DNA of 34,739 bases, taken from Bacilli bacterium (GTDB lineage Bacteria > Bacillota_I > Bacilli_A > RFN20 > CAG-288). A model generated the notes under the pieces. That model did not search any database and had not been told where the DNA came from. It saw nothing but the letters and a program-made list of their open reading frames with translations. Positions 3,041 to 34,534 of this stretch are shown piece by piece. Location of the stretch: contig CAAFJQ010000049.1 in NCBI GenBank assembly GCA_900763245.1, positions 1 to 34,739 on the forward strand, written 5' to 3'. Each line of letters starts with the position of its first letter. The stretch's first letter is position 1. Both the position numbers and the translations under genes were made by a program.

Positions 3041-3044
3041 AACA

Positions 3045-3080
3045 AATCAGCAGCACTGAATACAGTGTTGCTGATTTTTG
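3045..3080. terminator. Bidirectional rho-independent terminator between the surface-protein gene and the rloB-like gene
   Basis: Stem AATCAGCAGCAC (3045-3056) pairs with GTGTTGCTGATT (3065-3076) with one G:U pair and an 8-nt loop. TTTTG follows on the + strand and TTTGTTTT on the - strand. Confidence 0.75.
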
Positions 3081-3149
3081 ATATGCAATCTACTTAAAAT
3101 CCAGTTATGTCAGTAAAGATGCTTTGTCCTGTAACTAAGAATTCATCTA

Positions 3150-3790
3150 TCATTTTCGATGTTTGACTACTTTTCCGACTAATTCATGTAATGTAGATGC
3201 CGGGCAATAATTGGACGGCTTTTTGACGTCGGACTTTTTGATAGATGAAATCAAAGTCTTTAATGACAACACAAGAGCCTTATCTTCATCTCCAGTAGTC
3301 AAAAGAATAGTGTAGATAGAAGAATCGTTTTTCTTATATTCTTTTCCAGTAATTCTTTTAAAATCCCTTTTGAATGCTTCTATGCATTTTATCGCCTCTT
3401 CATTATTGGGCATTTTTCCATAATAAGCATGGAAGAATATTTCAATGCACGGGTTAGACCATGCTACATGAATTCCCTTAGCAGTTGCTTTTGAAATAAT
3501 CATGTCAAAATCTTCAGGTCGGTTATCGCAATCAAAAACAATCCAAGGTTCCCTGATTGTTGCATCTTCACGCAATAAGCGAAGTGTTGTTTCTATCAAG
3601 TCCTGTGTATTGATTTTACCAACAACTTTTATGCTTATTTTTTCTGTAGTTCAGGTTCAAACGAACTCCTCAATCCATTGAAAAAGTTTGTTTCAGTTTC
3701 ATCGCCATCAGTGACAATCAAAAGGTTTTCGAATAATTGTCTTCTGACTCCGATGCGACGTTTGTTTTTTCCTGCTTTTCCAATAGACAT
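3150..3790 (-). pseudogene. RloB-like (AbiLii-like, Toprim-type) protein gene interrupted by a 1-nt frameshift in an A6 run
   Basis: The N-terminal piece starts at ATG 3790, 7 nt after the ATPase stop. It reads MSIGKAGKNKRRIGVRRQLFENLLIVTDGDETETNFFNGLRSSFEPELQKK and stops at TAA 3635-3637. The 149-aa ORF 3150-3599 continues in the -1 frame and is open back to 3650 (...TEKISIKVVGKINTQDLIETTLRLL...). It contains WIVFDCDN and WSNPCIEIFFHAYYG, which match the RloB hallmarks (CEGxxTE-like, DxD, SNPCFE). Adding one A to the A6 run (T6 on the + strand, 3638-3643) gives one continuous ORF of ~213 aa. Confidence 0.8.
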
Positions 3791-3796
3791 AGACAA

Positions 3797-5071
3797 TCAA
3801 TTCCCTTTCTTTGCAAAATCAATGACATCCAAGGAAGGAATGCCATCGTATTTTCCTAACAGATAATTTTTTTCAAAGTCTTCATCTTGTCGGATTTTCG
3901 AACCATTTTCATCCGTAAATTCAGCCAGTGAATAAAGAGAGGATATGCCTGTTTCATTATCTTTATTAGTGAAGTATATTTCATCTCTTCTCAATAATCT
4001 GGAACGAAGTATCCAAGGTTCATGACATGTAAAAACAAGTTGTGCATTATTCGGATTTCTGTCTTTGTCTAGGAAAAGAAGCATTATATTTCTTAAAAGC
4101 AATGGATGCAATCTTGCATTCAGCTCATCAATAAACAAAAACGCCCCTGTTTTAATGATCTGATACAAATCATTGAACAGCAAAAACATCTTTTGTGTGC
4201 CTGCTGATTCCTCTTCCATTTTAAATATGACCTCTTTACCTTGTGAAGTGACATGAACAGTATTCACACGATACTTTTTTGTCCCATCCTTTTCAGTCAT
4301 TATTTCTTCTATAATAAGATCTTTGATTGAAGGTTCAAATGTCTGTAAAAATGACACGCATTCATTTTTGACCTTGTCATTTTCGACAATGCAAGAGGGA
4401 ATCTTATGATCGTAGTAAATGATTTCGTAGAGATTTGCAAAATCATCAACTCTGGACAAAGAGAAAAAATCAAATATGATTTTAAATATATCGACATTCA
4501 GTTTTGCCCCAAGAGAAAGGACCAACGTCTGAGGCGATGTTGAAGTTTCAAGTGTCGCCTTCAGAGCCGGATCCATTTTAAGAATACCGATCTTAATCAT
4601 ATCTGAATCTCGATACAATAAAACTTTCGAGTTTGATTTCTCACTCTTCGGAAGCTGGTAAAGCCATTCATTTTCTATTTTATGATTCAAAACGGAGAAA
4701 CCATATTGGAGCATCACGCTTTTCCCATTGATAACTGCATTCAATACAATCTCAAATGATGATGGTTTCATTTTAGATTCATCATCTAATCTAAAAGATA
4801 CCGGATTTGCAAAAAAAGATTCGGAATCCGGCTCAGCATTAGAATCAAAATTGACAGAAGAACAAACTATATATCTCATATAACGAAAAGCACGATAAAC
4901 AAAAGACTTGCCGCTTCCATTGGCACCGAAAATGACATTGACCGGTAAAATCTTGTTGCCATCGATAACACGAACCTGCTCTTTATATTCAGAATAAGAA
5001 GTCGCTTCTAAATTCAAACTGGTTTCATTCTTAAATGGTCCGTAATTGCTGAAATTAAATTGTAAAAGCAT
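3797..5071 (-). CDS. ABC-type AAA ATPase (AAA_15/AAA_21-like), AbiLi-like partner of the RloB-like protein
   Basis: 424-aa ORF. Walker A is GANGSGKS, Walker B with the typical LHP is FLFIDELNARLHPLL, the signature-like stretch is ESAGTQKMF, and the H-loop region is VFTCHEPWIL. SD GGGAGG at 5076-5081. The rloB-like ORF follows 7 nt downstream. Confidence 0.8.
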   Translation of the reverse strand: MLLQFNFSNYGPFKNETSLNLEATSYSEYKEQVRVIDGNKILPVNVIFGANGSGKSFVYRAFRYMRYIVCSSVNFDSNAEPDSESFFANPVSFRLDDESKMKPSSFEIVLNAVINGKSVMLQYGFSVLNHKIENEWLYQLPKSEKSNSKVLLYRDSDMIKIGILKMDPALKATLETSTSPQTLVLSLGAKLNVDIFKIIFDFFSLSRVDDFANLYEIIYYDHKIPSCIVENDKVKNECVSFLQTFEPSIKDLIIEEIMTEKDGTKKYRVNTVHVTSQGKEVIFKMEEESAGTQKMFLLFNDLYQIIKTGAFLFIDELNARLHPLLLRNIMLLFLDKDRNPNNAQLVFTCHEPWILRSRLLRRDEIYFTNKDNETGISSLYSLAEFTDENGSKIRQDEDFEKNYLLGKYDGIPSLDVIDFAKKGN

Positions 5072-5091
5072 ACATCCTCCCTAGTGAGTAG

Positions 5092-5100
5092 ATTATATCA
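5092..5100 (-). promoter_or_regulatory. Extended -10 promoter element (TGATATAAT) for the ATPase/RloB pair
   Basis: The - strand reads AAATATGATATAATCTACTCACTAGGGAGGATGTATG. The TGnTATAAT box lies ~20 nt upstream of the start codon. No good -35 is visible. Confidence 0.55.
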
Positions 5101-5190
5101 TATTTTCCTAAAATTTGAGACATTTTCTCAAAAGCAAGGAAAGAAATTCGAGTTAACATGATTTTTTGCTCTGATTTTGATGAAAAACTG

Positions 5191-5234
5191 AAAAAAGCCA
5201 TCACAGCAATCAATTGTGAAAGTCAGTGATGGCT
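5191..5234 (-). terminator. Rho-independent terminator of the SPFH gene
   Basis: On the - strand AGCCATCAC, a 21-nt loop and GTGATGGCT are followed by TTTTTT (A-run 5191-5196 on +). The loop is long, so the terminator is of moderate quality. Confidence 0.6.
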
Positions 5235-6383: not shown

Positions 6384-7904
6384 TCAGAAGGCGCGCTTTT
6401 CGATCTTTGCAAGTTTTGTCTTGCCTTTCTGACCGATTTCTTTTTCACTCATCAGGCTTGCCTTATCAAATAGGTTTTCACTGACTGAATAGGTTTCCAT
6501 GAATTCCGGCTGATATTTGGATTTGATCTCTTTGATTTCAGACATCGGTAAAGAAGAATAATCCCCTGTGTATTCGCTGTTGTCATTCAAAACAGAAATA
6601 GGAAGATGAGAAGAGGACAATGTATCATAGTCCGCTAAGGAATAAGAGAAAGGAGAAGAAGAATCTTTCTTTGTCTTATAACAGAGCATCAGGGACGGAT
6701 TCTCAATCTGATAGATCGAATTCAGTTTTGCAAACAATGATGTTGCTTCTTTAATGCTGTCTGTATTCATCAAAGCGGTCGTATACATATCAGCAAGAGC
6801 AGAATCATTGATAAGAACAGAGACCTGATCAAAGAAGGAAGAAGAATATCCGGTCTTTCCGTTCAGAATATGCATTCTTCTTAAAAACTGAGAAGAGGAA
6901 TCATCATATTCATAGAAGTACTGGTTGTAATAACCGGAGGTAGAGAGGTCAAAGTCTCCATCGATTTCAATCTTGACTTCGTTTCTATAATACGGGTTTT
7001 CCCTGCTTAAAGCTTTTTCATAATAGGACGGATTATCATATCTGATCTTCCACGCTTTTTTATCCGGTCTTGTTCCGATGGCTTTGATGGAAGAGAAGCC
7101 AGAATTGATTAGAAATGAAATATTCGGATATTTTTCTTTCAATGAATCTGCGATGTATTCGGTTGCAAATCCTTTAGCGTTTCCACCTAATGAAATCTTT
7201 AATATATCAGCTTTTTCATAGCGGTGGAAAATCACAGATTTTTTCCTGTCATCAAAGGTCAGAATATTTTCCATCTCTTGTTTTGTAGTCGGAATTGTCT
7301 TAACAATGGTATCAATTCTATTCTTTTCTTCATCATTGAAGGAAGAGAAGACCAAATCAGTAGAATACTGAAGGACAGCATCCAATGTCTTCTTGTTTTT
7401 CTCTTCTCTGACCTCTCCTAATTTTTCTTCATAGATGTCATTGAGAGTACCTAAAAAGATATTGAACTTCCCATCGCTGTTGATCATAAAATCATAGCTT
7501 GTCTTTAAAAGATCATATAAGAAGGGGTGAAGCAAAATCTCTTTCTCTTCTCCGTAGCTGTCGTTGATAGTCTTGATATTGTTTAAAAGCGCAGTCTCAT
7601 CATTTCCTTTATAGTAAGAATAATGACGGTCAGAAAGAGCATGATACAAAGTGAAATCATTCTTGAACGTATCTTCGATATCCTTGATCTGTTCTTCTGT
7701 ATAATCAGAAGAATGATAATAAAGACTTCCAGTTATCGAGGTATCAAAAGGAGAGACAAAATCAGATCCGATGACTCGGATTTCACCGGACCCCGCATAG
7801 ATCGAAGGCACCTGTATGGTATCTATCATCTCCTGATTTCCGCATGAGACAAGAGAAAGAAGCGGAAGAACAATCAATGGAACAATTCTTTTTTTATCTG
7901 TCAT
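6384..7904 (-). CDS. apbE: ApbE-family FAD:protein FMN transferase lipoprotein (unusually long form)
   Basis: 506-aa ORF with lipobox LLSLVSC|G. ApbE-like motifs appear in order: DGKFNIFLGTLNDIY, LGGNAKGFATEYIADSL, INSGFSSIKAIG, WKIRYDNP, LSTSGYYNQYF, HILNGKTGY and ADMYTTALM. SD GAGGTG lies upstream. Confidence 0.7.
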   Translation of the reverse strand: MTDKKRIVPLIVLPLLSLVSCGNQEMIDTIQVPSIYAGSGEIRVIGSDFVSPFDTSITGSLYYHSSDYTEEQIKDIEDTFKNDFTLYHALSDRHYSYYKGNDETALLNNIKTINDSYGEEKEILLHPFLYDLLKTSYDFMINSDGKFNIFLGTLNDIYEEKLGEVREEKNKKTLDAVLQYSTDLVFSSFNDEEKNRIDTIVKTIPTTKQEMENILTFDDRKKSVIFHRYEKADILKISLGGNAKGFATEYIADSLKEKYPNISFLINSGFSSIKAIGTRPDKKAWKIRYDNPSYYEKALSRENPYYRNEVKIEIDGDFDLSTSGYYNQYFYEYDDSSSQFLRRMHILNGKTGYSSSFFDQVSVLINDSALADMYTTALMNTDSIKEATSLFAKLNSIYQIENPSLMLCYKTKKDSSSPFSYSLADYDTLSSSHLPISVLNDNSEYTGDYSSLPMSEIKEIKSKYQPEFMETYSVSENLFDKASLMSEKEIGQKGKTKLAKIEKRAF

Positions 7905-7961
7905 GATTCACCTCAAAAGAAACACTATCAAGAATTATATCAATTTAATCATCTGAAAAGG

Positions 7962-15291: not shown

Positions 15292-16362
15292 ATGGAAGAC
15301 TATCTCAAGTTTTATTTCTTAGCGGAAGAGAGCGGCTGGGACTGCACCAGCTACGCTTTTGCGTATCGAAACAAACTTCTCTCTTCCGGTACCTATCAAG
15401 TCGTCTCCATCAATGTCATGAGCGCAAAGAAGCATCTCGGAGAAAAGGCACAGCAGATCTGTGAGACTTTTGCCTCTTTGGATAAAGATGCAAAAACACT
15501 GAAAGATGTCTTCATTTTAGAAAACACATTGAACTATCTCGCTTTGAACTCCTTCCCGGAATATTACCTCAACCCCTTGGCCATCAATCCGCGATACAGC
15601 GGTGATGTCACAACAATCGGTGACCTCATCTTCGATATTCAGGGCCAGGAAAAGAGTCTCAACGAATGGATCGTGGACCAAAGCGTTCCCTTAGAGACAA
15701 AGAAGGAAGAGATTTCCGATCAGCTTGACTATTACCTCAACGACATGAACAGATTAGTCACAAAGTCCATGAGCATCATCAAAAACAGAGCTTTCTCAAC
15801 AGGAGACAACAAAAAGCAGACCATCAAGAAGACAGTAGAAGGCATCTTCTTTGTTCTTCTTCACATTGCTTTATTTACAATCCTGCTTTACCCCTTTGAG
15901 GAATTCCAGGCTTGTCTTTATGTACTTGATCCTGGCAAAGTCATGACTTACATCTGGTTTCTATTCCCGCTCTCAGTCTTTTTCTTCGATATTGCATTTA
16001 TGCTTTTCCACAGCTATAAGGCAAGAATTTCCGAGCCTTATAACTATGCCAGAAGATTTTTGAAAAAAAACGTCAGCAAAGTCTACGAGGATATCAAAGA
16101 CAGAAGAGATGAACTATATGACTACATCTGCGGCGCCATCAACAATCACATTCTCTTAAAGAACGATATTACAGATTTTTCAAAGCTATCTTCTAGCTAT
16201 GTCGATATTGAGAAAGTCATCTCTGTTGACGAACTGCAAGAAAAGAAAACCTACCAGTTTTTCCATTTCCTTCTCTTCCTCTTTGGAACCCTTGCTTATA
16301 TGATGGCCGCATTCACAATCATCATCTATGTCATCGGCATGGTATTCAGAACATCGATTTAA
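15292..16362 (+). CDS. Hypothetical membrane protein (soluble N-domain, two central TM helices, soluble linker, C-terminal TM)
   Basis: 356-aa ORF starting 1 nt after the previous stop, with SD AGAGG. The TM segments are GIFFVLLHIALFTILLY, MTYIWFLFPLSVFFFDIAFMLF and FFHFLLFLFGTLAYMMAAFTIIIYVIGMVF. I recognised no family. Confidence 0.6.
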   Translation: MEDYLKFYFLAEESGWDCTSYAFAYRNKLLSSGTYQVVSINVMSAKKHLGEKAQQICETFASLDKDAKTLKDVFILENTLNYLALNSFPEYYLNPLAINPRYSGDVTTIGDLIFDIQGQEKSLNEWIVDQSVPLETKKEEISDQLDYYLNDMNRLVTKSMSIIKNRAFSTGDNKKQTIKKTVEGIFFVLLHIALFTILLYPFEEFQACLYVLDPGKVMTYIWFLFPLSVFFFDIAFMLFHSYKARISEPYNYARRFLKKNVSKVYEDIKDRRDELYDYICGAINNHILLKNDITDFSKLSSSYVDIEKVISVDELQEKKTYQFFHFLLFLFGTLAYMMAAFTIIIYVIGMVFRTSI

Positions 16363-16365
16363 ATT

Positions 16366-17097
16366 ATGAACATCAACGGAAAAGATTATCAGGACATCTT
16401 CCATCTTGCGTCTGACATGTATTTGTCCAGCGACTATTTTGCCAAGGAATTAAGAAGGGACACTCTTCTTTCCTTCATCAAAAAAGAAGATGAAGAAAAA
16501 TATGAAAAAATCGTCAAACTCTCTCTCCTCTCACTTCCCGATGACGTCTTTGTCTTTAAAGCCAGTTACATACTGAATCCTTTCATGTCGCTGAGAATCA
16601 AAGGATTCTGTTTTAAGGATTTCAAAGAATTAGGAGAGACGATTTTGGCTTTCTCACCAAATCCTAACCCCGTCCTCTCCCAGTTATTAAGATACAGTCT
16701 TTTAAGCAAGCACATGGAGAACACTTATTTCCAAGAAACAAACAAAGAAACTTATGAAAAGGTCCTCCAATTGGAAAAGATATCGGAGACTCAGCTTCCC
16801 TATGCCTATTTTTCTCTTGGATATTATCTCAGCAGAAAGACAACAATCATCTATGAAGGAAAAGAATATCAGGACATCTTCGATCTGACCTATTTCTTAT
16901 GCAAACAGGAAAAGGATCTCGATTCAATCGGTGCCTATTTGTCGAAATCCCCGCTTTTGAAAGCATACTCCGAATATGGAAAAAACAGCAAAAAGATGGA
17001 AGAATATCTTCACATCTGCGAAGAAGTCGATAAGAGCGAAAGAAAGCTAGACGAATTCCTCAACAAGAAAAAGAGGCGGAAAATCAGCGAAGAATAA
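16366..17097 (+). CDS. Hypothetical soluble protein with an internal duplication (GK-D/E-YQDIF motif twice)
   Basis: 243-aa ORF starting 3 nt after the previous stop. Two modules begin INGKDYQDIFHLASDMYL and YEGKEYQDIFDLTYFLC, 160 aa apart. The C-terminal tail is basic (NKKKRRKISEE). I recognised no family. Confidence 0.6.
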   Translation: MNINGKDYQDIFHLASDMYLSSDYFAKELRRDTLLSFIKKEDEEKYEKIVKLSLLSLPDDVFVFKASYILNPFMSLRIKGFCFKDFKELGETILAFSPNPNPVLSQLLRYSLLSKHMENTYFQETNKETYEKVLQLEKISETQLPYAYFSLGYYLSRKTTIIYEGKEYQDIFDLTYFLCKQEKDLDSIGAYLSKSPLLKAYSEYGKNSKKMEEYLHICEEVDKSERKLDEFLNKKKRRKISEE

Positions 17098-17198: not shown

Positions 17199-18095
17199 AT
17201 GTCAATTACGACAAAAGGTGAAAACAAGCCAACCGATTCGCCTTCCTCAGAAGAGATCAAAGCGACTGTAACAGACAAAATCTTAGACATGATGATTGTC
17301 TCTCACCCGCATGGCGACCATACAGGTGGATTGAGCGACAGAAACACTTTCAGAGAAATCGATTCGGTTGGTACATTCATCGATTAAGGGTATCAATATG
17401 CTACGCCAACGAATTAAGGTTACAAGTCAAATAGAGAAAAATATATCACCAAAGGCACCACCTACTATCCTGTCTATGACATGTTCAACAAAAATGTCCG
17501 CTCTCCTATCTTTGATTTAGGAGATAGAGTCACACTTGAGGTGTTGGACACTGGTCTTTATCTTCCCACAGATACCATTATGAATTCAGGCTACAATCAC
17601 AATGACTCTTCTGTCGCCCGCGTTCTGACTTACGGAGAGAACAAATTCTTCTTTGCCGGAGATCTGGAGGCAAAAAGAGAAAGAAATCCGATTGGCAAAT
17701 ATCCGAATTATTTCACCGATTATCATGTCTCCATGAAGGCTTCCAATCACGGAAGCGAAACTTCAAGCAACAAAGAGTTCTTAGAATACATCAAGCCTGA
17801 AAACATCTTCATCTCCGCTGCTGTCATAGAGGAAAACATGACATCATCCGGTGTCAAAGTGCAGCAACACCCTTACGTTTCCACACTGAAAAAGTACAGC
17901 CAATACACTTCTTCCATCTATTGGAATGGAACAATGGGAACGATTAACGCCTTTTTTGATAAAGACAATATCGTTTTTGTCCATGGCGACGGTGCTACAA
18001 GAAACTATTATTACAATGGCATCAAGATGATCTCTGAAGAAGAAAAAGACTTGCCATTTCCTGAAACAAAGTGGTATTCCACCTATATCAAATAA
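17199..18095 (+). pseudogene. Decayed ComEC-type MBL-fold metallo-hydrolase gene (N-terminally truncated, two in-frame TAA stops)
   Basis: ORFs 17199-17387 and 17481-18095 are in the same frame and are separated by TAA at 17385-17387 and TAA at 17415-17417. The motifs MMIVSHPHGDHTGGL (HxHxDH), FFFAGDLE and MKASNHGSETSS parallel the C-terminal domain of ComEC in this window (ITHPDYDHNGAL, LIMGDA, KVGHHGSNTSS). The usual upstream DVGQGD strand and the signal peptide are missing. Confidence 0.75.
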
Positions 18096-28494: not shown

Positions 28495-29127
28495 TTATTT
28501 CTTCTTCGGATGAGCGATAAGAAGATGAATATCGACGCCTTTTTCTCTGAACTTGGTTTCATATTCCGTCTTCGGAAGATAATCAACCTTTTCGGAATAG
28601 AAGGGCTCGATCACTTCAAAATCAAACAGATCGACCTCTTTGAAATACTCGACCGTATCCGCAAAGAGATCTGCATTATCGGTTCTGAAGTAAAGTGTTC
28701 CATCCTCTTTCAATAAGCGGATATATTCTTTCAGCATCGTCGGATAACTGAGACGGCGATGTTTTTGTTTCTTCTTCGGCCAGGGATCAGGGAAGTTGAT
28801 ATAGATATTCTCCAGCTGGTGATCTTCGACAAGGGGGAAGATTCTTTCAATCGGCGCATTCAGAAGAAGGAAGTTCTTCTTCTTGTCTTTGACTTCCGCT
28901 CCTTTTTTCACAGCGAGAGCAAAAGCGTTGCGATTGATTTCAACGCCGAGGTATCTGTTTTCAGGATGAAGCGCAGAAAGAGCAAGAATAAATCCTCCGC
29001 ATCCCGATCCTATTTCAAGATTCGGAAATTCTTTGACCTCTTCAGGAACGAAATCAGATAAGTTTCTGCTGATATCCTTATTTTCATTCAGGACTTCATC
29101 AGCCCATTTTCTGTGACGCAGTCTCAT
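28495..29127 (-). CDS. trmB: tRNA (guanine46-N7)-methyltransferase
   Basis: 210-aa ORF with the SAM motif LEIGSGCGGF and the family signature INFPDPWPKKKQKHRRL. Confidence 0.93.
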   Translation of the reverse strand: MRLRHRKWADEVLNENKDISRNLSDFVPEEVKEFPNLEIGSGCGGFILALSALHPENRYLGVEINRNAFALAVKKGAEVKDKKKNFLLLNAPIERIFPLVEDHQLENIYINFPDPWPKKKQKHRRLSYPTMLKEYIRLLKEDGTLYFRTDNADLFADTVEYFKEVDLFDFEVIEPFYSEKVDYLPKTEYETKFREKGVDIHLLIAHPKKK

Positions 29128-31416: not shown

Positions 31417-33435
31417 TCAAAAAGAAAGCGTGATGCTCCCTTCTATATCCGTCCTTCGATATGGGATATTCAATGCAGATAATACGGATAATGTCTCCTT
31501 ATGCGGATGACCATATTTGTTATTCTCTCCACAGGAGATAATCGCCAAAGAAGGAGATAGTGATTTCAAAAAAGAATAATCCGAGGAAGTATTCGAACCA
31601 TGATGCCCGACTTTGATAACATCGGCATGAAGCGATGGATTGTCTTTGATGATTTTCTTTTCAACAATCTTCGGTGCATCACCCATGATAAGAAAAGAAA
31701 CATCAGATACAGTAAAAGCATAAACGCCGGAAAAATAGTTATCATCTTCTGTTTTCGGAAAAGAATAAAAATTGTAATTTTTCACTGTCAGTTCTTTGAT
31801 ATCGATTGTGTTGTCTTTAGCCTCAAGGAAATCATCTCTTGTATAGACAGCGTTCACTGGAAAGCTGTTCTTCAAAGAGATCAATGCACCATTATGATCA
31901 TAGTCCGGATGCGTAATGATGACGGCATCAAGAGAGCTGATTTTCCTTTTATGAAAATAAGGAATGAGACATTCTTTTGCCAAATCGACATTCATCTTCC
32001 CACCCGTGTCGATCAATACATTTGTCCTTCCTTTTCTCACTAATGTGGCATCTCCCTGGTCCACATCGATGAAAGTGACTTCATTGTGTTTCAGAAAATC
32101 AGGTATGAAAACAAAGGAGACACTGATGGAAAAGACAAGCGCGATATATCGAGTATATCTTTTGAAATGATAGAATCTTAAAAACTCAACTATTGCATAT
32201 AGAATATAATAAATCAAAATAAAAAAGACAGAAACCTTTCCACTTACAAGAAGAAAATTGACATTCATGACAACATCTGCAAGTCTGATGATAAACCGAC
32301 AAAACAGATTGATCAGATAAGCTGTCTGAGGAGCGATAAGCAAAAGAAGAGATAACAGAAACAATAAGTGGCTATATGGAATCAGCAAAAAAGAAAAGAG
32401 AATCGAAAGCGGTGAAATATATCCATCAATAAATAGGTGATACGGAAGATAAAAAGACTGCATCCGAAAGAAAAAGGAAAATGGATTTCTGCTTTTCTTC
32501 TCTTTTCTCATCGGAAAGAGAGCAAAAAGAAAAAGAAGCGGAAAAGCATAATAAAAAGATGCACTGAAAAAAGAATAAGGTTCAAAGAACAATAGAATCA
32601 ATGCTGTTATTGAGACACGGGAGAGATAGTCGATCTTTCTTTTTCCATAATCCGAAATGAGTTTCAATATCGCTAATAGCAACAAGCGTCTCATCGTATA
32701 TGAAAAAGACGAAAAGAAAAGAAATAAAAACAAAAGAACAGTTTCAAGAATATCTCCTATTTTTTCTCTTTTCTTTCCTAATAATTTTTTCAGAACGTGA
32801 ATAACAAAGGACAGATGAAATCCAGATAGTGAAAACAGATTCAGAATTCCTAAGCCATTCAGTGAAGCAAGGCTCTTTTCCGAATACAGGCTTTCTTGAA
32901 AAAGAAAAGCTTCAATAAAAGGAGATGAATTCTCATCAGCATAAGATAAGAGATACTTTCTTATTGAATTCAAATTTCGAATACCAGAAAAAGATAATGC
33001 GATCTCTTTCACTTTCAGTTGTGAAAAGACACCTTGGCTTTTCAGATAATTCTGGAAAGAAAAGCCAGATTCATAATGAGAAAAAGAAAGAGATTCTGCT
33101 TCTCCTTTTACTTCAAGCACCGAAAACAGAGAGTAGGGATTGTTCTTTTCCGAAACATAGAACTTTCCCTTCAGAGTCAGTAACAGAAAGTAATTCTCTT
33201 TGCTTTTCACGACAATGCCGTAAGCATCAATCGCTCCATTTTCCTTTTTGGGATACAGAAGGATGAGAAAGAAAAACAAAAGGGAAAAGAAAAGATATAG
33301 AATGATGTCTTTTTTCTGTTTCTTATAAAGAAGCAGATAAAGAAGAAGAGGAACAAGAGACAGAAAAAAGAAATAAGAGACGGAGGCCGATAGCAAGCCA
33401 AGCAGCGCAAAGAGAAAGCAGAAGAAAAGAATCAT
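31417..33435 (-). CDS. comEC: DNA internalisation competence protein ComEC/Rec2
   Basis: 672-aa ORF with a polytopic competence domain. The C-terminal MBL domain has FIDVDQGDATLV, ITHPDYDHNGAL and KVGHHGSNTSS. Its start overlaps the comEA stop (ATGA). Confidence 0.9.
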   Translation of the reverse strand: MILFFCFLFALLGLLSASVSYFFFLSLVPLLLYLLLYKKQKKDIILYLFFSLLFFFLILLYPKKENGAIDAYGIVVKSKENYFLLLTLKGKFYVSEKNNPYSLFSVLEVKGEAESLSFSHYESGFSFQNYLKSQGVFSQLKVKEIALSFSGIRNLNSIRKYLLSYADENSSPFIEAFLFQESLYSEKSLASLNGLGILNLFSLSGFHLSFVIHVLKKLLGKKREKIGDILETVLLFLFLFFSSFSYTMRRLLLLAILKLISDYGKRKIDYLSRVSITALILLFFEPYSFFSASFYYAFPLLFLFALFPMRKEKKSRNPFSFFFRMQSFYLPYHLFIDGYISPLSILFSFLLIPYSHLLFLLSLLLLIAPQTAYLINLFCRFIIRLADVVMNVNFLLVSGKVSVFFILIYYILYAIVEFLRFYHFKRYTRYIALVFSISVSFVFIPDFLKHNEVTFIDVDQGDATLVRKGRTNVLIDTGGKMNVDLAKECLIPYFHKRKISSLDAVIITHPDYDHNGALISLKNSFPVNAVYTRDDFLEAKDNTIDIKELTVKNYNFYSFPKTEDDNYFSGVYAFTVSDVSFLIMGDAPKIVEKKIIKDNPSLHADVIKVGHHGSNTSSDYSFLKSLSPSLAIISCGENNKYGHPHKETLSVLSALNIPYRRTDIEGSITLSF

Positions 33436-34060: not shown

Positions 34061-34534
34061 TTAGTTATCAATCTTAACGATCTCGACAGAGTAGGTGATC
34101 TTAGCATGGACTTCGACAATATCGCCGACTCTATGTCCGCTGATAGCCATTGCAATAGGAGAGTTGCTGTTGAGCAATCCCTTCAACGGATCTGTACCGA
34201 TGGTGCCTTTGATCTGAACAACAAATTCTTCACCGGTATCAACACGTCTAAGAGTGATCTTTCCGCCACCGATGCCGACAACATTCTTGTCGAGCTTGGA
34301 CTCATCGATGATTTCGGCGTGGTCCAATGTATAACGGATCTCAGCAATCTTGTTCTTGTTTTCTTCGAAACGTTCCTTAGCAGCATCATAATCAGCGTTT
34401 TCGCTTAAGTCGCCTAAAGCACGAGCGGCTTCCAATGCGGCATCGATCTGAGGTCTTTCAACATGTTCGAGCTGATATAATTCGTCTTCAAGCTGTTTCT
34501 TGACAGCAAGAGTCATTTTCTGTGTTTGTTCCAT
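34061..34534 (-). CDS. greA: Transcription elongation factor GreA
   Basis: 157-aa ORF with the coiled-coil N-domain signature ARALGDLSENADYDAAKE and a C-terminal FKBP-like domain (NSNSPIAMAISGHRVGDIVEV). SD AAGGAGA. Confidence 0.95.
   Translation of the reverse strand: MEQTQKMTLAVKKQLEDELYQLEHVERPQIDAALEAARALGDLSENADYDAAKERFEENKNKIAEIRYTLDHAEIIDESKLDKNVVGIGGGKITLRRVDTGEEFVVQIKGTIGTDPLKGLLNSNSPIAMAISGHRVGDIVEVHAKITYSVEIVKIDN

Follow-up and report, generated by a model that had tools for sequence, protein, structure and literature searches.

Contig CAAFJQ010000049.1, assembled from gut metagenomes and belonging to a Candidatus Enterosoma species (Bacilli), carries a two-gene islet in which an intact gene for an ABC-type ATPase is followed by the frameshifted gene of a small RloB protein (positions 3150-5071, both genes on the minus strand, within the interval 3081-5190). 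We take this pair to be a horizontally acquired AbiL/RloAB anti-phage module whose effector is null in this genome, polymorphic in the species and recurrently lost through slippage in a homopolymer, a reading to which we give a probability of about 0.7. The locus itself is one more AbiL/RloAB pair, and it is the population pattern that has some value: within one uncultured gut species, roughly half of the sampled strains have an intact effector in a single defence system, the other half have it broken at the same homopolymer, and none has lost the ATPase. The analysis covers the window, that is, the whole stretch of 34,739 nt, together with the same locus in 30 distinct contigs of the species, 10 of which were recovered with the ATPase protein and the others with variants of the neighboring SPFH protein.

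The ATPase gene is a single uninterrupted open reading frame (ORF) that holds GANGSGKS, FLFIDELNARLHP and CHEPW. Profile searches placed its product firmly: the match to Pfam AAA_21 scores 94.4 bits (cut-off 27, E 1.7e-26), and among 71 PADLOC families AbiLi is the best by far (1.1e-77), with AriA (3.6e-27), PtuA and GajA all matching far more weakly. Residues of Walker A (G49, N51, G54, K55, S56), of the signature (E288, S289, G291, T292), of Walker B (D315, E316) and of the H-loop (H350) are invariant in 47 homologues. The AlphaFold model, with a mean predicted local distance difference test score (pLDDT) of 79.7, was found by Foldseek to resemble the retron type I-A ATPase, Rad50 and Septu PtuA (E about 1e-10), SMC heads (1e-9 to 1e-7) and AriA (2.8e-4), so that Walker A, signature, Walker B, H-loop and the ABC head fold are all present. 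A homologue search, which scored its 8,000 best word-sharing candidates, returned at least 5,120 with E <= 0.001, many of them about 42% identical over the full length. Matches fell in 183 plasmid records, some annotated RloA or RloB, and an ATP-binding protein or RloA is found paired with RloB on plasmids; no Lactococcus record is among the best plasmid matches listed. Judged by its sequence, the pair is an ordinary member of the AbiL/RloAB family, which has thousands of members. Its many full-length homologues and the RloA/RloB pairs on plasmids show that it is not the divergent subtype that a first-pass annotation of the window, made by a model from the letters alone, had thought possible.

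Six nucleotides beyond the TGA stop of the ATPase gene, an ATG at 3790 opens the RloB gene. Translation from this start yields only a fragment, with LLIVTDGDETETNFF, strand beta-1 and the TDGxxTE acidic motif, that matches the RloB and AbiLii profiles weakly at profile positions 1-24. VFDCDN (DxD) and WSNPCIEIFFHAYYG (the WSNPCIE motif) lie in a different frame, in a 3' part that by itself matches Pfam RloB with 72.5 bits (6.6e-20) over profile positions 62-193 and whose first possible start is a TTG at 3599. The two frames meet at a poly-A tract of six residues (A6), from which translation runs into a stop at codon 52, ahead of both the DxD and the WSNPCIE motifs. One A added to the tract restores a single protein of 213 residues, and this repaired form, identical in tract length to the A7 alleles described below, reaches 99.5 bits against Pfam RloB (cut-off 31.5) and 6.3e-15 against PADLOC AbiLii. 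Because the frameshift truncates the presumed nuclease ahead of its DxD motif, the copy in the window is most likely a null allele and the system probably inactive.

These results bear directly on what the first-pass annotation had proposed. All the strings it quoted are present, on the minus strand, and its 424-residue ATPase stands as one ORF. An RloB-like gene does lie behind the ATPase gene, but the spacer is one nucleotide shorter than the 7 nt it gave, and what it described as a single ORF is split by the frameshift; it had hinted at a frame repair, and neither the break nor its population context was described there. The AbiL architecture that it recognized, an AAA_21/AAA_15 ATPase with RloB, is borne out by Pfam and PADLOC matches above their cut-offs in a co-oriented two-gene unit, RloB passing in its repaired form.

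Several features of the RloB protein are consistent with a Toprim-like effector. In 49 homologues T27, T32, D87, D89 and W111-C115 are invariant, and D28, E33 and E117 occur in at least 90%. The RloB model (mean pLDDT 88.9) has four beta-alpha units, with strands at 21-27, 52-57, 81-87 and 108-113; it places D28 and E33 after beta-1, and D87xD89 at the end of beta-3. A Foldseek search of the viral library BFVD with this model returned a phage RloB-like protein (7e-21) and, weakly, DnaG TOPRIM domains (2.9e-3). NCBIfam has no family for either the ATPase or RloB.

The state of the tract differs among strains of the species. Seven A residues, which give the intact 213-residue protein, were found in 14 of the 30 contigs, six in another 14 and eight (A8) in the remaining 2, and the ATPase gene is intact in all 30; the two intact genes of an AbiL/RloAB system are therefore present together in 14 of the 30 contigs and not in the window. 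The 23 contigs that were sampled through the SPFH gene gave a similar division (A7 in 12, A6 in 9, A8 in 2). Alignment of 17 kb from 13 contigs revealed seven indel sites, four of them single-base changes in intergenic homopolymers and two of them in-frame changes of 3 bp; the seventh, the RloB tract, is the only one to break a frame and the only one with three lengths. Whole clades share a tract state, and six A6 contigs carry a T>C single-nucleotide polymorphism (SNP) adjacent to the tract, so that tract states are heritable. At least four changes of tract length are required on the 17-kb tree, and the Fitch minimum on a 4.5-kb tree is seven. Over 17 kb, contig L006 (A7) differs at about 22 SNPs from L004 and L010 (both A8). 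The flanks of the tract had no match when JGI metagenome contigs were searched.

The sequences of the broken alleles indicate what follows a change of the tract. In the RloB gene, A6 alleles are about nine times as diverse as A7 alleles (4.10 against 0.44 per kb); when the comparison is limited to contigs recovered by way of the SPFH gene, it stands at 4.14 against 0.26 per kb (permutation p ~0.0005, phylogeny being ignored). The SPFH, ATPase and Big_2 genes are similarly diverse in the two groups. V57D, P128H, A198T and S199F are among the changes private to A6 alleles, and the SNPs that mark A6 alleles occur in none of the 14 A7 alleles, which are nearly invariant. The excess of diversity in A6 alleles, coupled with the absence of their SNPs from A7 alleles, fits one-way breaks followed by drift and not frequent reversible switching; the likeliest account is that the older broken alleles are decaying and that most breaks are one-way. 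A further observation is that the SPFH and Big_2 genes on either side, at 5-6 per kb, exceed the pair in diversity (about 2 per kb for the ATPase, 0.3-0.4 for intact RloB), which would fit a younger common ancestor of the islet or a stronger constraint on it.

The pair stands as a lone islet between the gene for an SPFH protein on one side and that for a Big_2 surface protein on the other. Housekeeping genes fill the remainder of the window: ApbE, an AP endonuclease, a pseudouridine synthase, phosphoglucomutase, hrcA-grpE-dnaK-dnaJ, comEC and pantothenate kinase. The window contains no integrase or transposase genes, as the first-pass annotation had stated, and no restriction-modification genes; PADLOC found no second defence system in it, only partial matches at the level of domains at 17481-18095 and 28495-29127. 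The low G+C content that had been estimated for the pair from a few lines is real (0.344 and 0.354 for the two genes, 0.406 for the window), and the G+C content at third codon positions of the ATPase gene, 0.32, is the lowest among 29 genes (mean 0.45, standard deviation 0.05, or about 2.6 standard deviations under the mean); that of the comEC-like gene at 31417-33435 is almost as low. In all 30 contigs of the species the pair occupies the identical position between the SPFH and Big_2 genes, with no empty site among them. A search of genome contigs with the SPFH protein for a sister species or an empty site returned, among the matches listed, only proteins at most 73% identical, in contigs showing no synteny, and its own species was absent. 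Direct and inverted repeats that could mark an insertion around the pair amount to short, chance-level matches.

Since no strain or sister species free of the pair was found in these searches, the case for insertion is built on composition and on the differing contexts of homologues. The closest other pair (RloB 67% and ATPase 64% identical) is found next to a pst operon, flanked by a Transposase_mut gene (168 residues) on one side and IS66 transposase genes on the other; its two genes overlap, and the site homologous to the tract has RRK codons instead of a run of A residues. Another related pair adjoins housekeeping genes. The different, transposase-flanked context of the closest pair argues that the module moves between genomes and is not ancient core genome. 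The comparison of relatives for presence or absence, suggested in the first-pass annotation, has two outcomes: within the species the pair was present in all 30 contigs, and the closest pair elsewhere has transposase genes around it. The pair appears to have been acquired horizontally by the Candidatus Enterosoma lineage and to be now fixed between the SPFH and Big_2 genes.

Loss of the effector is not confined to this species. In a second gut species (L124:780-1438 and L125:755-1413), an RloB gene about 56% identical is frameshifted at the homologous poly-A (AAG AAAAAA TCA), with A6 where A7 is required, over homologous Lys-Lys-Ile codons; the ATPase there lacks residues 77-267 through an internal deletion, and the whole pair has decayed. 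In a third species (L126:3495-4129), a short T run near residue 144 carries the frameshift of an RloB gene 63% identical, and the ATPase gene beside it is intact. In a fourth (L121:4100-5383), an ATPase 68% identical has no RloB partner and adjoins AbiEii, a STAND-like NTPase and a gene with Schlafen/AlbA_2 and HATPase_c_4 domains, a neighborhood that looks like a defence island. Effector loss with retention of the ATPase therefore recurs, and it fits the toxin-antitoxin asymmetry that has been reported for such pairs.

How the pair would act can be drawn from PARIS, Septu and the pairs of ATPase antitoxins and TOPRIM toxins. By this analogy, the ABC ATPase would serve as sensor and keeper, holding the small Toprim-like RloB nuclease inactive; a phage cue would free or activate RloB, which would then cut nucleic acid and halt growth, and the infection would abort. 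Loss of one A, from A7 to A6, would leave the strain of the window making the ATPase with no working nuclease. In the species as a whole, A6 and A8 would have arisen several times, the costly or toxic effector being lost and the harmless ATPase kept.

A number of observations weigh against this account of an acquired module that repeatedly and lastingly loses its effector. Within the searches described above, no strain or sister species lacking the pair was found. Recombination is evident in the haplotype table, which makes the count of independent tract changes uncertain. The A6 allele of the window is otherwise identical to the intact consensus, and could be a recent loss or a reversible OFF state. 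The mechanism is argued by analogy only, and the anti-phage role by homology only. At E <= 0.001, Foldseek found nothing in the PDB for the RloB model, and sequence searches of the PDB with both proteins and the RloB profile found no solved relative. The RloB family usually has its catalytic Glu after beta-1; at that position the subfamily studied here has Asp (TDG).

The same polymorphism invites a different explanation, in which the poly-A tract acts as a contingency locus: slipped-strand mispairing at high rate would switch RloB reversibly between ON (A7) and OFF (A6, A8), and each population would keep both defended and cost-free cells through phase-variable abortive infection. Coding tracts of A7 to A9 are known as switches in Bacillota, swrA of Bacillus subtilis being an example. 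The RloB tract has much that such a locus should have: it lies in a coding sequence, its length sets the frame and varies from A6 to A8 over the 30 contigs, three lengths at one site and several changes on the strain tree have been recorded, it is the sole frame-changing indel in 17 kb, the A7 contig L006 is close to its two A8 relatives, the A6 allele of the window has no other defect, and the homologous tract has shifted in the second species also. Reversion, however, seems rare, since the SNPs of A6 alleles are absent from all 14 of the nearly invariant A7 alleles; moreover, the tract is short (6-8), other short homopolymers, all intergenic, vary among strains too, and the closest relative has no tract at the site. 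We regard phase variation as possible though unlikely, and hold as more doubtful again the stronger form of the proposal, that A7 is a true switch of a toxic nuclease in a gut commensal that keeps its sensor ATPase, and that its recurrence in the second species reflects selection for mutability and not just mutation bias.

Other readings concern the role of the pair or the reality of the break. The pair might lack an anti-phage role of its own and act as a selfish addiction module of the toxin-antitoxin type, or else as an accessory to further systems, as with Campylobacter rloAB in type I restriction loci. AAA-ATPase antitoxins neutralize TOPRIM toxins, and such pairs act as toxin-antitoxin systems in toxicity assays (PMC10440598); the first description of rloAB placed the genes within restriction-modification loci and assigned them no function (PMC2928727); and an addiction module predicts the asymmetry seen here, in which the toxin is lost and the antitoxin kept. 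Against this stand the phage resistance conferred by lactococcal AbiL, the member that defines the family (Deng et al. 1999, as reviewed in PMC13064643), the lack of restriction-modification genes in the window and the position of one homologue, that of L121, among other defence genes. Toxin-antitoxin and anti-phage roles are not mutually exclusive, and a pair devoid of the latter strikes us as improbable. Lower still do we place the production of full-length RloB from A6, at a low but functional level, by transcriptional slippage or by a -1 slip of tRNA-Lys on AAA-AAA before the TAA. The sequence permits the latter, as a P-site tRNA moving back from AAA to the overlapping AAA with the stop in the A site would restore the frame exactly. 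Programmed frameshifting is disfavored by the downstream structure, which is not significant (z-scores of -1.8 and +0.1), by the A8 allele, which would need a different shift, by the existence of the intact A7 form, which is the conserved one, and by the nonsynonymous changes that build up 3' of the tract in A6 alleles. Least credible of all is the notion that A6, A7 and A8 are errors of sequencing or assembly. All the data come from metagenome assemblies, and homopolymers are prone to error, but tract states follow clades and a linked SNP, and contigs whose naming styles suggest different assemblers (k127/k141, NODE_, scaffold_, Logan, NCBI metagenome-assembled genomes) show more than one state each. 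Furthermore, in L001 the 17-kb locus has 25 A/T runs of length 6 and 5 of length 7, and among all runs of at least six only the RloB tract and the intergenic T6/T7 tail of the SPFH terminator vary in length; no other run in a coding sequence does. Assembly error was rejected on the strength of the heritable, SNP-linked states.

Among known systems, the likeness is closest to AbiL of Lactococcus lactis (AbiLi and AbiLii) and RloA/RloB of Campylobacter, in which an AAA_21/AAA_15 ATPase gene is likewise followed, in the same orientation and nearly abutting, by one for an RloB protein of about 210 residues; the likeness rests on the AbiLi and AbiLii profiles of PADLOC, which are the best for both proteins. 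The pair of the window differs in lying on the chromosome of an uncultured gut Bacilli species, in a housekeeping region rather than on a plasmid or within a restriction-modification locus, in the frameshift of its effector gene and in the Asp that its subfamily has after beta-1. Its nearest plasmid-borne relatives, among the matches listed, are at most 37% identical. AbiL has been grouped with the ABC-ATPase-plus-TOPRIM systems, near PARIS in trees (PMC11464382; reviewed in PMC13064643), and RloB has been placed in the Toprim superfamily (PMC12065111).

PARIS (AriA and AriB) shares with the pair the division into an ABC ATPase plus a Toprim-type effector, and the ATPase model matches AriA in structure 8v46 (2.8e-4). 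In contrast with PARIS, whose target is tRNA-Lys, the effector here is RloB and not DUF4435: the AriB/DUF4435 profile gave no match to it, the only matching profiles in Pfam and PADLOC being RloB and AbiLii, and the ATPase matches AbiLi far more strongly than AriA. Septu PtuA and the retron type I-A ATPase are the best structural matches of the ATPase, but their partners are HNH nucleases or retron components. Members of the OLD family (P2 Old, GajA) also combine an ABC ATPase with a Toprim nuclease; there the domains are fused in one polypeptide, whereas here they are divided between two genes, and a Foldseek search of the PDB with the RloB model returned no significant match to OLD structures. 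Genes that vary in phase through homopolymers, such as type III mod genes and swrA of B. subtilis (A8/A9), are similar in that the length of a coding run sets the frame and several lengths coexist in a population; the tract described here is short in comparison, and the evidence favors rare and mostly one-way loss.

The pattern illustrates cleanly, in natural strains, what abortive-infection effectors cost and how they turn over, and the loss of the effector beside a retained ATPase agrees with the toxin-antitoxin asymmetry of ATPase-plus-Toprim systems. It also holds a warning for annotation pipelines, as matches for both genes do not amount to a working system. The natural pairs of intact and broken alleles would provide convenient isogenic material for the study of AbiL.

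Features of the pair and its borders, in positions of the window (Table 1), are those of a two-gene operon: the genes are adjacent and co-oriented, with a single -10 box upstream and hairpins on both sides.

Table 1. Coding and regulatory features of the AbiL/RloAB-like pair and its borders.
Feature	Position	Strand	Basis
Hairpin common to the convergent Big_2 and RloB transcripts	3044-3077	both	fold; inverted repeat I6
3' RloB/AbiLii part in shifted frame, stop at 3150-3152	3150-3637	-	Pfam, translation
5' RloB/AbiLii fragment, 51 codons and premature TAA (3635-3637)	3635-3790	-	three-frame translation
Poly-A tract with frameshift, A6 here (T6 on the plus strand)	3638-3643	-	contig alignments (11, 13, 30)
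Intact ABC-type (Rad50/SMC/PtuA-like) ATPase gene, AbiLi/RloA kind, 424 residues	3797-5071	-	ORF, Pfam, PADLOC
Ribosome-binding site GGGAGGA, 3 nt ahead of the ATPase ATG	5075-5081	-	sequence
Extended -10 box TGATATAAT, 21 nt upstream of the ATPase ATG; putative promoter of the pair	5092-5100	-	pattern match
SPFH-gene terminator, hairpin 5196-5234 with U6 tail	5190-5234	-	-17.2 kcal/mol, z -3.2

The promoter and terminators listed had been pointed out in the first-pass annotation, and both were recovered. The string TGATATAAT is where a promoter of the pair's own would be expected and would, from its sequence, serve as one; no good -35 element was seen upstream of the pair to accompany it. The same string recurs at 7934-7942 on the minus strand, upstream of the ApbE gene, and at 34473-34481 on the plus strand, and may represent a type of promoter that is common in this genome. 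Both bordering hairpins fold strongly and have U-rich tails, and a consensus terminator scan of the window, which reported none, missed both. The SPFH-gene terminator insulates the pair from read-through. At the other border, the hairpin has a folding energy of -22.2 kcal/mol (z -5.7) on the plus strand and -19.3 kcal/mol (z -4.4) on the minus strand, and is followed on the 3' side by a U-rich stretch on each (UUGAUAUG on the plus strand, UUUGUUU on the minus strand). Given its strong fold and U-rich stretch on both strands, it plausibly functions in both directions, as a bidirectional terminator.

Some further variation was recorded around the pair. The U-tract of the SPFH terminator (5190-5195) is T6 or T7 among strains, and T7 is common to one group of contigs. 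One of the two in-frame indels, in the signal-peptide region of ApbE (about 7880-7895), adds a Lys/Arg codon and gives proteins of 506 or 505 residues; the other, in Big_2 (about position 12008 of L001), involves an AGA repeat unit and gives 997, 998 or 1000 residues. Of the two partial PADLOC matches, that at 17481-18095 on the plus strand is to LmuA (1.6e-8 over about 80 residues) and that at 28495-29127 on the minus strand is to the C-terminal part of mad2 (2.9e-14); both probably represent generic common domains rather than genes for defence. At E <= 1e-5, Pfam gave no match for the ORFs at 15292-16362, 16366-17097 and 17481-18095. The window appears to be a whole contig of a metagenome-assembled genome, and the start of the Big_2 gene lies 38 bases from its end. 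Contigs recovered through ApbE variants stop within the SPFH gene, as do several Logan contigs of the species (L098-L100), which break off close upstream of the pair, where mixtures of strains may disrupt the assembly graph.

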